Sequence record: NZ_CP029448.1
From: a plasmid
Length of the DNA stretch: 64,000 nucleotides
Reading direction: 5' to 3' (one strand)
Positions within the stretch are counted from its first letter, which is position 1. Each line of letters begins with the position of its first letter. The position numbers and the translations under genes are program-made. This document shows, one piece after another, positions 1-14,776 of the stretch. Under the pieces are notes generated by a model. The model had not been told where the DNA came from, did not search any database, and saw only the letters and a program-made list of their open reading frames with translations.

Positions 1-188
1 TCCAGTGGCTTCTGTTTCTATCAGCTGTCCCTCCCGTTCAGCTACTGACGGGGTTGTGCGTAACGGCAAAAGCACTGCCGGACATCAGCGCTATCTCTGC
101 TCTCACTGCCGTAAAACATGGCAACTGCAGTTCACTTACACCGCTTCTCAACCCGGTACGCACCAGAAAATCATTGATATGGCCATGA
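1..188 (+). mobile_element. IS1 fragment (about IS1 nt 51-238); left part lies off-window, right side truncated and fused to an IS110-family fragment
   Basis: Window begins with CCAGTGGCTTCTGTTTCTATCAGCTGTCCC, the canonical IS1 left-end sequence. Translation gives the InsA N-terminus, [62 protein letters not shown], then diverges. Confidence 0.85.
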
Positions 189-208
189 ACGAACCGTTAC
201 CGACTTAA
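5..208 (+). pseudogene. insA: IS1 insA, truncated (GTG start; first ~60 aa InsA-like, C-terminus replaced by junction sequence)
   Basis: ORF track 67 aa. The match to IS1 InsA ends after DMAMN, where the IS110-family frame begins. Confidence 0.8.
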
Positions 209-430
209 TCGTGGTGGAGATCGTGCTGCAAATAGTGCACTTCACATCATCGCCATCGGACGCTTACGAACTGACGCAAAAACAAAGGAATATGTCGCCA
301 GGCGTGTAGCCGAAGGACATACAAAAATGGACGCGATACGCTGTCTAAAGCGATATATCTCCCGCGAAGTTTACACGTTACTGCGCAATCAAAACAGGCG
401 GATCAACAGTATCCCGATAACAGCTTGACT
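189..430 (+). pseudogene. IS110-family transposase, C-terminal fragment only
   Basis: Frame translation ...[76 protein letters not shown]. This is the conserved C-terminal block of IS110-family transposases (stop at 426-428); no N-terminal part is present. Confidence 0.65.
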
Positions 431-773
<343 letters not shown>

Positions 774-774
774 C

Positions 775-1950
775 ATGATGGAGAGCATTAATAATCAAGT
801 GCAGTCGGTACGCCAGTTGCTGGCCATTCCCCAACTGGCCATCCCAAGCTATCAGCGACCTTACCGCTGGGGCTCCAAGAATATCTCGGATCTCTTTACC
901 GATTTGGCAACCCATCAGGACAAGAGCGCCTACCGGCTGGGCTCGGTGGTGTTTCATCAGCACACCGATAGTGAGCAGGGCGAGATGCTTGATATCGTCG
1001 ATGGTCAGCAACGCACCCTGACCCTGATGTTGACCGTCAAGGCGCTGATCGAGGTGCTGGATAACGAAAATCGCAGTGGCAAAGAGAAGAGTATCCGGTT
1101 TCAACGTCAGGATCTGCGTGAGCAATTGCAGGTCTTGCGTGGACCTATCGATGCGTTTATGCAGCGCCAGCGCTTCCCCAGCCGGGATTCGGAGTTCAAC
1201 CTCAGACGCAACTATCTGGAGTTGCGTCGGCTGGTGGCCCGCCCTGAGTTTGACGAGCAGCAAATTGACTTTCTGCTCAACCGCTGTCAGGTGGTCTGCT
1301 TTGTGCTGCAGGATATCTCGGAGGCGTTCCAGTTCTTCGATTCGCAAAATGCCCGGGGGCGCGATCTGGCTCCTCACGATCTGCTCAAGGCATTTCACCT
1401 GCGCGAGTTTGCCGGTCATGAGGCCAATCTCAAGGCCGAGGCGGTCGCCCATTGGGAGCGCCTGCCAAGCGACGAGCTGGCCAATCTGTTCGCCCTCTAT
1501 CTCTATCGGGTACGCCAGTGGGCCGAGGGCAAGTCGGCCCGCTACTTTGGCAAGGGGGAGGTGGATCTCTTCAAGGGGGTCAACCTAGATCGGGTAGGGC
1601 ATTATCCTTACGTGGAGTCGCTGCGCATCGCCCACCACTTTGTCGATGAGTACAACAGCCAGTACCAGCGCAAGATTGACGGCCAGTACATGACGTTTCC
1701 CTTTCATCTCGACCAGATGATCATCAATGGTCGGCGCTTTTTCGAGATGGCCGAGTACTACCAGACGCGGGTGGCCGCCATCGTGGCCGAGGAGTCTGAT
1801 TCCGGCAAGGCGCAATCTGCCACCCTGCTCGGCGAAACGCTGACACCGATGGCCAGCAAGGTGCTATCGACCCTGGGCAGTTACGAGCGACGCCACCGCA
1901 CCGGGGATCGTTATGTGCGGGCCATGTTCGACTGCGCCCTGATCTTCTAG
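775..1950 (+). CDS. DUF262 (ParB/Srx-like nuclease fold) family protein, stand-alone, 391 aa
   Basis: N-terminal IPSYQRPYRWG and DGQQR motifs, and downstream FDSQNARGRDLAPHDLLKAF (N..G..L...DLLK), are the two hallmark DUF262 motifs. RBS AGGAGG at 762-767 lies in the IS3-fragment end. Stop TAG at 1948-1950 overlaps the first G of the miniature element's left inverted repeat. Confidence 0.7.
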   Translation: MMESINNQVQSVRQLLAIPQLAIPSYQRPYRWGSKNISDLFTDLATHQDKSAYRLGSVVFHQHTDSEQGEMLDIVDGQQRTLTLMLTVKALIEVLDNENRSGKEKSIRFQRQDLREQLQVLRGPIDAFMQRQRFPSRDSEFNLRRNYLELRRLVARPEFDEQQIDFLLNRCQVVCFVLQDISEAFQFFDSQNARGRDLAPHDLLKAFHLREFAGHEANLKAEAVAHWERLPSDELANLFALYLYRVRQWAEGKSARYFGKGEVDLFKGVNLDRVGHYPYVESLRIAHHFVDEYNSQYQRKIDGQYMTFPFHLDQMIINGRRFFEMAEYYQTRVAAIVAEESDSGKAQSATLLGETLTPMASKVLSTLGSYERRHRTGDRYVRAMFDCALIF

Positions 1951-2235
1951 GGGTCCGCTTGGAAAACGGAAATTTTCCTACGTTAAGCGTTTTGAGCTTA
2001 ACGAGTGATTTCGTTCCATTGAGCGCGAACCCCTGACCGTAAGGGATGTACGGAACGATCTGACTGTCCGTTAACAGTTTTGCTTACTTTCGTACATGTT
2101 ATTGGCATGGTGTACGCAATCGTTCGGTTTCGGACACAGAAACGCTGTAGCCCCGCGAACCGAGTGATATCCAATAGCCGATTGGTTAAAAAGTAGTCTT
2201 AGCGTAGGTTATTTTCCCTTTTCCAAGCGGACCCC
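1950..2235. mobile_element. 286-bp Tn3-family-derived miniature inverted-repeat element (TIME-like), no ORF
   Basis: Left end GGGGTCCGCTTGGAAAACGGAAATTTTCCTACGTTAAG (1950-1987). Right end 2198-2235 reverse-complements to GGGGTCCGCTTGGAAAAGGGAAAATAACCTACGCTAAG. Both have the Tn3-family 38-bp IR architecture (GGGG...ACG(T/C)TAAG). The interior is non-coding and no flanking 5-bp duplication is seen. Confidence 0.65.
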
Positions 2236-2518
2236 ACTTACGTCCATGCTAAAGCGCCTGAACCACCCGTCGCTCGTATCTTACCTCTTAAGTCTTGCCC
2301 CTGAAGGTACTCACTTTTAGTTCAGGATGGGCTACTCTCCATCTCTCTTACAAGAGGACATGGGCATCTCATTTAGTTGAAATTTGTACGCCAATACAAA
2401 TGACAATCTTAGAAAGGATCTCTTGCAAATTGAAAGTAAGTTATTGATTTGCAGGATCTGAGAGTTCTGTAGTATCCTCCGTTCCGAAGACATTTCTGAG
2501 GTGTCAGGAGAGCGATAA

Positions 2519-2797
2519 ATGTCACGTCCAGCAGATAAAACAACTTCCTCTGCGAATGCAAAACGTGCATACCGGAAAGGTAAGCCAATGTCTGCCAGTG
2601 AGAGACAGCTTGCCGCGATTGCGCGGAAACGCGAAACGCATAAAGAAGTTAAGGTTTTTGTTAAAAACCCACTAAAGGACGTGATGATAGCGGTTTGTGA
2701 AGAAGAAGGTCTGACACAAGCCCAGTTTATCGAGAGGCTCCTTGAGCGAGAGCTTACAGAACGCGGTCTTTTAGATGTAAAGACTTCACATTCTTGA
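2519..2797 (+). CDS. repA2: IncFII replication regulator CopB/RepA2
   Basis: 92 aa, MSRPADKTTSSANAKRAYRKGKPMSASERQLAAIARKRETHKEVKVFVKNPLKD... This is the CopB-type repressor in its usual position upstream of copA/tap/repA1. Confidence 0.85.
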   Translation: MSRPADKTTSSANAKRAYRKGKPMSASERQLAAIARKRETHKEVKVFVKNPLKDVMIAVCEEEGLTQAQFIERLLERELTERGLLDVKTSHS

Positions 2798-2904
2798 TCA
2801 TGTTTATATTGAGTGCTAGATTGTTGATGGTCTGAATAATTTTGGGTGTGCCACGCCGTAAGGTGGCAGGGAACTGGTTCTGATGAGGTATCTACCCGGG
2901 ACCA

Positions 2905-2995
2905 GAAAGCAAAAACCCCGATAATCTTCTTCAATCTTGGCGGAAGGAAAAGATTAACGGGGCCTTCATAAACTGCATAGAACGTGTTGCTCTAT
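2905..2995 (-). ncRNA. copA: CopA-type antisense RNA region (copy-number control), approximate bounds
   Basis: Lies between repA2 and tap. Long imperfect stem-loop at 2916-2962 (CCCCGATAATCTT...AAGATTAACGGGG) followed on the minus strand by a U-tract (plus strand GCAAAAA 2909-2915). This is typical of the CopA/CopT loop II terminator of IncFII replicons. Ends are inferred, not mapped. Confidence 0.4.
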
Positions 2996-3012
2996 GCAGG
3001 GAGTATATGTAC

Positions 3013-3090
3013 ATGCTCAGAAAACTTCAAGCTCAGTTTCTGTGTCATTCGCTCCTTCTGTGCAACATAAGCGCAGGAAGCGGTGACTGA
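3013..3090 (+). CDS. tap: repA1 leader peptide Tap (25 aa; translational coupling)
   Basis: ATG 3013 ... TGA 3088-3090 encodes [25 protein letters not shown]. It overlaps the repA1 GTG start, as in R100/R1. Confidence 0.7.
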
Positions 3091-3940
3091 TCTCCTTCAA
3101 AATCACTATTCACAGGTTAAAAACCCGAATCCGGTATTCACGCCGCGTGAAGGGAAAAAGACCCTGCCGTTCTGCCGTAAGCTGATGGCGAAAGCCGAAG
3201 GCTTCACGTCCCGTTTTGATTTTTCCATCCATGTGGCGTTTTTGCGTTCGCTGGGTAAGCGTCACCGGATGCCACCACTGTTGCGCCGGCGTGCAATTGA
3301 CGCTCTTCTGCAGGCAATGTGTTTCCACTACGATCCGCTGGCCAATCGCGTGCAGCGCTCGATTACCAATATGGCCATCGAATGTGGACTGGCCACCGAG
3401 TCCAGGAGCGGCAACCTGTCGATCACCCGAGCCACCCGGGCGCTGAAGTTCCTGGCCGAGCTGGGGCTGATCACCTATCAGACGGAATATGACCCACAGA
3501 TCGGCTGTAATATCCCGACCGATATCACCTTCACCCCGGCTCTGTTTTCCGCGCTTGACGTTTCAGAAATGGCTGTGGTGGCCGCGCGCCGCAGCCGTGT
3601 GGAATGGGAAAACCTGCAGCGCAAAAAACAGCAACTGAAACCGCTGGAGATGGACGAACTGATCGCAAAAGCGTGGCGGTTTGTGCGTGAGCGTTTTCGC
3701 AGCTACCAGGCTGAACGAAAATCTCACGGCCGGAAGCGGGATACTGCACGGCGGGATGCATCACGGCAGCGTCATGACATCGAGACGCGCGTGCGTCAGC
3801 AACTGACCCGCGAATACGCCACCGGCCGCTTCAGGGGCGATAAAGAAGCGCTGAAGCGTGAGGTTGAGCGCCGTGTGCAGGAGCGCATGCTGCTGTCGCG
3901 CGGAAACAACTACACGCGGCTGGCCACTGCCCCCCTATAA
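3083..3940 (+). CDS. repA1: IncFII RepA1 replication initiator (GTG start)
   Basis: 285 aa, [93 protein letters not shown]... This matches the characteristic RepFIIA RepA1 sequence. Confidence 0.9.
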
Positions 3941-6080: not shown

Positions 6081-6303
6081 CCTTCTATCGGATTACATTC
6101 GGATACTGAAGTCACTATTCCAGGAGTGCCTGAAGATCAGTTTGTGTCTCAGGCTCTCTGCTCTGCCTTACCTGTCGCGTATAACTCATCTCCCCGGGAA
6201 GACTGGGCTCCTTTTGCATCGCTGGTTCTGGAAGCCAGTTACGAAGCAACGTTGCTGGCAGGTGTTCTGAACTACCGGCGTACAGGCAATCCGAGAGTAT
6301 ATG
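6078..6303 (+). pseudogene. ORF fragment cut off by the mercury-transposon IR (unknown product)
   Basis: Frame MPSIGLHSDTEVTIPGVPEDQFVSQALCSALPVAYNSSPREDWAPFASLVLEASYEATLLAGVLNYRRTGNPRVYGG runs straight into the 38-bp IR at 6304. Confidence 0.25.
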
Positions 6304-6464
6304 GGGGTCGTCTCAGAATTCGGAAAATAAAGCACGCTAAGGCGTAGTCACCCCGTGACTCCCCCGCGCCGATGCAGCGAGCTTCGTTCCGTCTTGCAGT
6401 GACGCAATCAGCGGGCAGGAAACGTTCCCTTTCCGCGCATGGCAGGCGCACACCAGTTCAGACA
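6304..6464 (+). mobile_element. Remnant of a Tn21-subgroup transposon: 38-bp IRmer plus the 3' end of merR, truncated by the Tn5403-like element
   Basis: GGGGTCGTCTCAGAATTCGGAAAATAAAGCACGCTAAG (6304-6341) followed by 123 bp. The whole segment is identical to 14288-14448. Confidence 0.85.
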
Positions 6465-13486: not shown

Positions 13487-14213
13487 GCCTTGTCAGTCGT
13501 TGCCTCCGGGTCTCACGTGCGCAACTGCATGCCATGGCCCGTCGGTCGAAGGGCTGGCAGGATCGTCGGTGCAAGCGCAAGCCTGATGATACTGAAGCGC
13601 TGGCTCGTATCCATACCGTTATCGACGATCTGCCCACCTATGGTTATCGTCGTGTATGGGCACTGCTGCGCAGACAATCAGAAACTGACGACATGGCGGT
13701 GATCAATGCCAAACGCGTATACCGCATCATGCGTCAGAATGCGCTGCTGCTTGAGCGTAAACCGGCAATACCGCCCTCGAAGCGGGCGCATAGAGGGAAA
13801 GTGGCCGTTGGAGAAAGTAACCAGCGGTGGTGCTCCGACGGCTTCGAGTTCAGCTGTGATAACGGTGAAAAACTGCGGGTCACGTTCGCGCTGGACTGTT
13901 GCGATCGCGAGGCACTTCACTGGGCGGCAAGTACCGGTGGATATGACAGTGAAACCGTGCAGGACGTCATGCTGGGTGCCGTGGAGCGTCGCTTCGGTAA
14001 CAGCCTGCCGACATCCCCAGTTGAGTGGCTGACAGACAACGGTTCAGCCTACCGTTCTTATCAGACGCGTCAGTTCGCCAGAATGGTAGGACTGGAGCCT
14101 AAACATACGGCGGTACGTAGCCCGGAAAGCAACGGAATGGCGGAGAGCTTCGTGAAAACGATGAAGCGCGACTACATCAGCATCATGCCAAAACCTGACG
14201 GGTTAACAGCGGC
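13444..14213 (+). pseudogene. insD: IS2 InsD (orfB), lacking its C-terminus
   Basis: [12 protein letters not shown]...; homology ends at ...[10 protein letters not shown] and the remaining residues are read from IS1 sequence. Confidence 0.8.
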
Positions 14214-14287
14214 GGTGATGCTGCCAACTTACTGATTTAGTGTATGATGGTGTTTTTGAGGTGCTCCAGTGGCTTCTGTTTCTATCA
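14214..14287 (+). mobile_element. IS1 left-end fragment (first ~74 bp incl. IRL) abutting the mercury-transposon IR
   Basis: GGTGATGCTGCCAACTTACTGATTTAGTGTATGATGGTGTTTTTGAGGTGCTCCAGTGGCTTCTGTTTCTATCAG, then GGGGTCGTCTCAG. Confidence 0.85.
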
Positions 14288-14320
14288 GGGGTCGTCTCAG
14301 AATTCGGAAAATAAAGCACG

Positions 14321-14776
14321 CTAAGGCGTAGTCACCCCGTGACTCCCCCGCGCCGATGCAGCGAGCTTCGTTCCGTCTTGCAGTGACGCAATCAGCGGGC
14401 AGGAAACGTTCCCTTTCCGCGCATGGCAGGCGCACACCAGTTCAGACAGCACGGCCTCCATGCGTGCCAAGTCGGCCATCTTCTCGCGCACATCCTTGAG
14501 CTTGTGCTCGGCCAGGCCGCTGGCTTCCTCGCAATGGGTGCCATCCTCCAGCCGCAGTAGCTCGGCGATTTCGTCCAGGCTAAAGCCCAGCCGCTGGGCC
14601 GATTTCACGAACCGCACTCGTGTTACATCCGCCTCGCCATAGCGGCGAATGCTGCCATAGGGCTTGTCTGGCTCCGGCAGCAGGCCCTTGCGCTGGTAGA
14701 ACCGGATGGTCTCCACATTGACCCCGGCCGCCTTGGCAAAAACGCCAATGGTCAGATTCTCAAAATTAATTTGCAT
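14321..14776 (-). CDS. merR: MerR mercury-responsive regulator (variant C-terminus, reading frame extends into the IR)
   Basis: [57 protein letters not shown]...CPLIASLQ... Confidence 0.85.

Follow-up and report, generated by a model that had tools for sequence, protein, structure and literature searches.

Probable remnant of a TgvAB-type restriction system, cut off at a Tn3-type miniature element next to an IncFII replicon

The reading frame preceding the IncFII replicon in the window (the whole 64,000-nucleotide stretch of plasmid record NZ_CP029448.1 that was analysed here) very probably represents, at a rough probability of 0.9, a decayed remnant retaining 81% of the first gene of a TgvAB-type type IV restriction system found on Klebsiella IncF plasmids. 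This assignment was drawn from sequence comparisons. The first gene is tgvA-like and encodes a 483-aa protein composed of DUF262 and DUF7834. The system itself is already known: what is seen here is a catalogued TgvAB homologue in a decayed state, an ordinary pseudogene remnant. The gene and its domains were located as follows:

778..1950, plus strand: 3'-truncated tgvA-like gene, codons 1-390 of a 483-codon gene
about 835-1398, plus strand: GmrSD_N/DUF262 domain (Pfam), with DGQQR inside
about 1432-1947, plus strand: partial DUF7834 domain (Pfam)

A first ATG opens a plus-strand frame of 391 aa at 775..1950 and a second ATG at 778 one of 390 aa; the latter is the start retained in the RefSeq annotation of the identical gene on other plasmids. 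The DUF262 signature motifs announced by the earlier note were all found at their places (YQRPYRWG at 850-873, DGQQR at 1000-1014 and FDSQNARGRDLAPHDLLK at 1336-1389), and Pfam assigned GmrSD_N (DUF262) to residues 21-208 with an E value of 1.5e-28. Its statement that no DUF1524/HNH domain is attached also held, as Pfam detected none in the 390/391-aa polypeptide, but the accompanying claim of a stand-alone DUF262 did not: DUF7834 occupied residues 220-391 (E 2e-49), aligned to positions 2-156 only of the 235 of the profile. NCBIfam yielded no match with the window protein. Apart from the truncation of its 3' end the frame displayed no other lesion, and the DUF262 NTPase module with its DGQQR motif was complete.

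The PADLOC models of HEC-06, Orf5 and SspE matched residues ~3-115 of the window protein. Membership of these single-chain families was rejected, since the matches were restricted to the N-terminal ~110 residues and reflect the common DUF262 module only. Members of the single-chain GmrSD family (Eco94GmrSD, BrxU/HEC-05, HEC-06, SspE and DndI) share this N-terminal DUF262/GmrSD_N NTPase module with the window protein. In these enzymes, which need no partner, a single polypeptide nevertheless comprises DUF262 and the DUF1524 His-Me nuclease, whereas the window protein never had a nuclease and carries DUF7834.

The window product was identical (390/390) to the first 390 residues of WP_000443938.1 (483 aa), a protein carried by hundreds of Klebsiella IncF plasmids, e.g. 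pKP048 (NC_014312.1). At the DNA level, hundreds of Klebsiella IncF plasmids matched positions 1-1949 at 100% identity, every one of these matches stopping at 1949. Where the intact allele reads TTC TAT ATC GAC..., the window reads TTC TAG GGG TCC...; the stop codon TAG (1948-1950) is composed of the TA of the native TAT (Tyr391) codon and of the first G of a miniature element described below. The earlier note had seen this stop overlap the first base of the left inverted repeat (IR) of the element, and the G at 1950 does belong to both. Its suggestion that the native C-terminus had been replaced is now shown, the gene being cut after codon 390 of 483 at this IR.

The full-length protein covers positions 2-231 of the 235-position DUF7834 profile, against 2-156 in the window. 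GmrSD_N and DUF7834 were present in all of the best 120 homologues listed, which originated from many genera with identities of 58-99%; those of full length measured 465-499 aa, and a few entries that were shorter or fused represented decayed variants. According to an alignment of 29 homologues, the lost residues 391-483 (93 residues) hold 22 invariant columns of the DUF7834 domain. Compared with full-length homologues, the gene has lost the end of DUF7834 but no fused DUF1524; the nuclease is encoded by a separate partner gene, missing as well. Pfam found no GmrSD_C/DUF1524 in either the truncated or the full-length A protein, the partner alone having one.

The AlphaFold model of the full-length protein was of moderate confidence only (mean pLDDT 67, pTM 0.48). 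In this model the breakpoint fell inside a predicted helix (375-395), followed by more helices, and residues 187-320 were too weakly modelled for a domain-level fold assignment of DUF7834. The fold search returned significant matches to two chains of PDB 9JFL only, with a low TM-score; we take these chains to be DndI. Entry 9JFL is the phosphorothioation-sensing DndBCDE-DndI system.

The same junction was found on at least six other short contigs. Past the junction, contigs coding for the exact 390-/391-aa product carried on into the same IR and matched at 28/28 or 286/286 bases, and one contig with the exact product ended at the junction itself. Homologues of the same length and C-terminus but without an adjacent element, which the earlier note had considered as evidence against a truncation, were searched for and none was found.

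Two NCBI proteins, P0050 of 449 aa and P0072 of 642 aa, matched 62-64% of the length of the tgvA-like protein at 100% identity and also carried GmrSD_C. They look like in-frame TgvA-TgvB fusions generated by internal deletions, and like other decay variants of the same locus. Another homologue (P0019, 476 aa) is a variant labelled DeoR and displayed an extra HTH_DeoR match.

In pKP048-type plasmids the tgvA-like gene overlaps by 8 nt a gene whose 680-aa product combines GmrSD_N with GmrSD_C (DUF1524). Both genes are located between hsdR-sprT, a type I R-M block, and the anti-phage gene hhe; they follow hsdR-sprT with IS fragments in between. A+B pairs with the same 8-nt overlap, B again having GmrSD_N and GmrSD_C, were encountered in four other genera, with A of 472-483 aa and B of 661-695 aa across these loci. 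Their neighbours were cas3/cse1 in Vogesella, a type I hsdR in Shewanella and an SNF2 helicase in Enterobacter hormaechei, while the pair of Vibrio parahaemolyticus was embedded in hsdM-hsdS-A-B-hsdR-sprT. Wherever an intact context was examined, a DUF262+DUF1524 nuclease gene followed and overlapped this gene. The description of a stand-alone DUF262 system could not be maintained, as the gene belongs to a catalogued TgvAB homologue and its "stand-alone" appearance is an artefact of the deletion. Homologues do reside in defence islands, a point that the earlier note proposed to check, with neighbours such as Cas3, type I R-M, SNF2 helicases and Hhe. Besides plasmids, chromosomes of Enterobacteriaceae carried homologues of tgvAB. 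As to the profile of a TgvA-type component (DUF262 with DGQQR plus DUF7834, ~470-485 aa), the ancestral allele fits it, and the window copy measures 390 aa with DUF7834 cut at position 156 of 235.

The V. parahaemolyticus locus (L014, 1169-13225) reads hsdM-hsdS-tgvA-tgvB-hsdR-sprT/YgjP after an Mrr-type restriction gene and is a close architectural match to that of V. cholerae VPI-2. This layout indicates that sprT was part of the ancestral operon, which explains the hsdR-sprT block upstream of the pair in Klebsiella plasmids. The junction between the IS fragment and the tgvA-like gene was also observed on several E. coli chromosomes besides plasmids, so that the module has moved between replicons as a unit.

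TgvAB was described from V. cholerae VPI-2 as two genes overlapping by 8 bp, TgvA carrying DUF262 only and TgvB both DUF262 and DUF1524 (PMC11411939; Gomez & Waters 2024, PMC11014532). It is a type IV restriction system that targets glucosylated 5hmC and so protects against T-even phages, as known from expression in E. coli; TgvA or TgvB singly gave no protection, even over-expressed (PMC11411939, PMC11014532). A complex of TgvA and TgvB was proposed (PMC11014532). The exact Klebsiella sequence (MESINNQVQSVRQLL...) is found 69 times in Table S5 of PMC11411939 as a VC1767/TgvA match of the authors' MacSyFinder model, and the same table pairs its neighbour protein as a VC1766/TgvB match. A 2026 preprint reported TgvAB on IncFIB/IncFII/rep_cluster_2183 plasmids of K. 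pneumoniae.

With residues 1-399 of VC1767 and of VC1766, as given in the same Table S5, representing V. cholerae, Klebsiella A displayed 25% identity to TgvA over its full length (E 1e-21) and Klebsiella B 24% identity to TgvB (E 5e-21). V. cholerae TgvA presented the same Pfam architecture as Klebsiella A, GmrSD_N followed by DUF7834. The intact Klebsiella locus resembles TgvAB in its two-gene layout, its 8-bp overlap, its nuclease-free A protein with DGQQR and its DUF262 + DUF1524 B protein. It differs in that its proteins are only ~25% identical to the tested V. cholerae pair, and in that the latter lies between hsdS and hsdR (hsdM-hsdS-tgvA-tgvB-hsdR) whereas the Klebsiella-plasmid pair comes after hsdR-sprT, behind IS debris. 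The window differs further by keeping part of A while B is absent. Embedding is not obligatory, as indicated by 1,341 tgvAB matches against 79 embedded in type I R-M (PMC11411939, Vizzarro et al. 2024). The target specificity of the Klebsiella pair and its need for both proteins are extrapolated from V. cholerae at ~25% identity.

These comparisons also bear on whether the window protein could be a functional stand-alone DUF262 protein of defence or regulation, acting alone or with unrelated effectors, for instance by sensing modifications or by regulating in the manner of DndB. In its favour, regulators made of DUF262 alone are known, DndB among them, the DUF262 domain and DGQQR are intact, the native ribosome-binding site (RBS) is kept and the same truncated allele occurs in several samples. 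This is nevertheless quite improbable: the protein is cleanly cut short relative to a 483-aa family whose members vary little in length and conserve their tail, its obligate partner has gone while TgvA alone gives no defence, and no dnd or other cognate genes are adjacent. In addition, window 1-1949 still matches the intact allele at 100% identity, so that the event was recent and the integrity of the ORF says nothing about selection.

The sequence that terminates this gene was delimited as follows:

1950..2235, no strand assigned: Tn3-derived miniature element (TIME-type MITE), 286 bp, non-coding, with left IR (IRL) at 1950-1987 and right IR (IRR) at 2198-2235

Its 38-bp IR arms were 87% complementary and displayed the Tn3-family form GGGG...ACGYTAAG; shuffles of the window gave no such inverted-repeat match. 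Stop codons break all six frames of the element, the longest ORF (58 aa) being too short for a transposase. Matches were obtained in 642 PLSDB records, 60 of them at >=99% identity, mostly from plasmids of Klebsiella, Escherichia, Citrobacter and Enterobacter and in many contexts. An identical copy in pSTN0717-73-3 was flanked by a perfect 5-bp duplication, AAGAA, and 5-bp repeats are those made by TIMEs (PMC13367494). The element thus displayed the ~38-bp Tn3-family IRs, the size (50-500 bp) and the lack of a transposase that define TIMEs, together with, at other sites, a 5-bp duplication and many contexts; no duplication accompanied the window copy. It resembles TIMEs by its IRs, its lack of coding capacity, its 5-bp duplication at another site and its mainly plasmid-borne distribution, and differs in not being one of four named elements and in that the window copy marks a deletion endpoint.

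These four, TIME244, IS101, IMU and MITESen1, were rejected with whole-element identities of 49-57%, the closest IR being the IRR of MITESen1 (32/38). No transposase was found attached to the partial relatives in pRHB03-C05_2, pKpQIL-10 and pEk140_mcr-10. The window contains Tn21-type and Tn5403-type transposons, whose IRs matched the element at 25-28 of 38 positions; no parent or cognate transposon with matching IRs was found among the relatives and window transposons compared. Further copies of the element were seen at L006 (1501-1786) and L007 (3001-3286), and a Lelliottia plasmid (L008, 3001-3325) displayed an extra partial copy of the right IR directly after the element. In pKpQIL-10 (L018, 5001-5189), the interval from a ProQ/FinO-family gene to the IncFII repA contains a 189-bp relative of its right part (~83% identity); this sequence of pKpQIL-type KPC plasmids is another miniature-element remnant beside an IncFII replicon. 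The 286-bp element is unnamed in the 2026 TIME survey and may merit a name, yet it belongs to a known kind, in which it is unremarkable.

Beyond the element, the window continues with the replicon:

2236..3940, plus strand: IncFII replicon (upstream region, repA2, repA1), identical to pKP048-type plasmids from 2235/2236 on and bearing RepA annotations
2519-2797, plus strand: repA2/copB
3083-3940, plus strand: repA1

In pKP048-type plasmids the point matching 2236 is located 36 nt downstream of the pld gene, and its distance from tgvA nt 1949 was 12.2 kb in pKP048 and 13.3 kb in NZ_CP023916.1. As judged from the alignment of the two arrangements, ~12-13 kb were shown to be replaced by the 286-bp element, with loss of the tgvA 3' end, tgvB, hhe, IS elements and pld. 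Neither blastn nor tblastn recovered tgvB, the tgvA 3' end or hhe anywhere in the 64-kb window. The location next to the replicon, pointed out by the earlier note, is therefore no native arrangement but was produced by the deletion. The 5-bp flanks of the window element were unlike (TTCTA on the left, ACTTA on the right) and formed no target-site duplication; together with the AAGAA duplication at the identical copy elsewhere, this designates the window copy as a deletion endpoint and not as a simple insertion.

In the proposed course of events, a deletion of ~12-13 kb with one end at the miniature element would have removed tgvA codons 391-483, tgvB, hhe and pld, and would have joined what was left of tgvA to the sequence preceding the IncFII repA2. 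Two routes may be envisaged: the element transposed replicatively within the molecule, served in trans by a Tn3-family transposase, or two copies of it, in direct repeat, recombined with each other. Either would leave one copy with unlike 5-bp flanks. Recombination between copies was invoked for MITESen1 structures without direct repeats (Gomi & Yano). Searches of PLSDB for the window junction found none, and those for a simple-insertion precursor at either flank found neither.

Two identical Tn21-type 38-bp terminal repeats (6303-6341 and 14287-14325) were noticed on the same strand of the window, ~8 kb apart. A 76-bp stretch at 14213-14288 was identical to the sequence that precedes and enters window nt 1 in pKP048 (L001, 3949-4024). 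Both observations suggest a further transposon- or IS-mediated rearrangement of the backbone.

DUF262 belongs to the ParB/Srx superfamily and the gene adjoins the IncFII replicon in the window, two points compatible with a ParB-type plasmid partition protein. The earlier note had mentioned this alternative and saw no cognate ParA/parS. It is now effectively refuted and its probability is negligible: Pfam gave no ParBc match even at E<=1, the best matches being GmrSD_N and DUF7834, no ParA-like ORF was present within 6 kb, the adjacency to the replicon was made by the deletion and homologues lie in defence islands.

Upstream of the tgvA-like gene, the following features were distinguished, the last two by reading of translations:

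430..761, plus strand: IS3-family 3' fragment (ISEc52/IS911 type), consisting of the transposase ORF end (511-753) and the right terminal repeat; left edge approximate
769..773, plus strand: Shine-Dalgarno GGAGG of the tgvA-like gene, native, 8 nt past the IS end
5-208: IS1 InsA-like ORF
about 190-430: short C-terminal piece of an IS110-family transposase

Thousands of E. coli ISEc52/IS911-family copies matched as far as window 757-762 and no further; K-12 IS3 was rejected as the source of the fragment, which fits ISEc52/IS911-type copies. The sequence GGAGGCnTGATGG was kept upstream of the homologues from Vogesella (89-90% identical protein) and Enterobacter hormaechei, where there is no IS. 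The RBS is therefore native, since the GGAGG and start region are conserved in these IS-free loci and the IS match ends at ~757-762, and the attribution of the RBS to the end of the IS3-family fragment was wrong. Of the view that expression signals are chimeric, the part on the RBS accordingly fell, while that on the promoter is fair, as the IS end lies 13-16 nt upstream of the start codons. The same IS fragment precedes the intact gene in pKP048-type plasmids, so this proximity is equally true there. A promoter scan gave one weak match, across the IS end and the start codon, no better than chance. As the 13-16 nt gap offers no convincing promoter, transcription must come from upstream, likewise at the intact plasmid locus.

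Positions 1-761 of the window consist of stacked IS debris, and this block was 100% identical in intact pKP048-type plasmids. In this region, contigs L019 and L020 displayed a complete IS110-family transposase gene instead.

By analogy with V. cholerae, the DUF262 (ParB/Srx-fold NTPase) modules of A and B in the intact pair would both be required to sense glucosyl-5hmC phage DNA, after which the His-Me finger (DUF1524) nuclease of B would cut the hypermodified DNA. Transcription and translation of the remnant may continue, as neither its native RBS nor its reading frame is damaged. With no nuclease partner and with a conserved part of its second domain lost, it is most probably non-functional in defence. 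In the stump, the DUF262 NTPase/sensor module is complete and the native RBS still present, and the same stump was seen in several samples. That the free DUF262 module retains some activity or interferes is improbable, and nothing supports it.

The stump might otherwise work in trans with a TgvB-/GmrSD-like nuclease elsewhere in the host, or be dominant-negative on a resident type IV system, as the proposed TgvA-TgvB complex and the tgvAB homologues on Enterobacteriaceae chromosomes could allow. This is purely speculative and most unlikely: no partner was found inside the 64 kb, and DUF7834 is most conserved in the very tail that is missing, which is probably needed for folding or interaction. 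There is hardly more than a slight chance, too, that the 390-aa stump is retained as a plasmid-borne anti-restriction decoy that poisons or titrates TgvAB/GmrSD-type restriction of the host or of recipient cells, or that it pairs with a chromosomal nuclease; the intactness of the ORF, the sole support for retention, is explained by the recency of the deletion. The remnant is best regarded as the leftover of a broken restriction gene pair.

A defence-gene scan would flag this ORF as DUF262 or 'GmrSD-like', yet the system is broken, its nuclease partner and hhe having gone. Censuses counting single-domain matches can thereby overestimate functional defence content. The defence islands of Klebsiella IncF resistance plasmids erode by deletions associated with Tn3-type miniature elements, which are small and mostly left unannotated.
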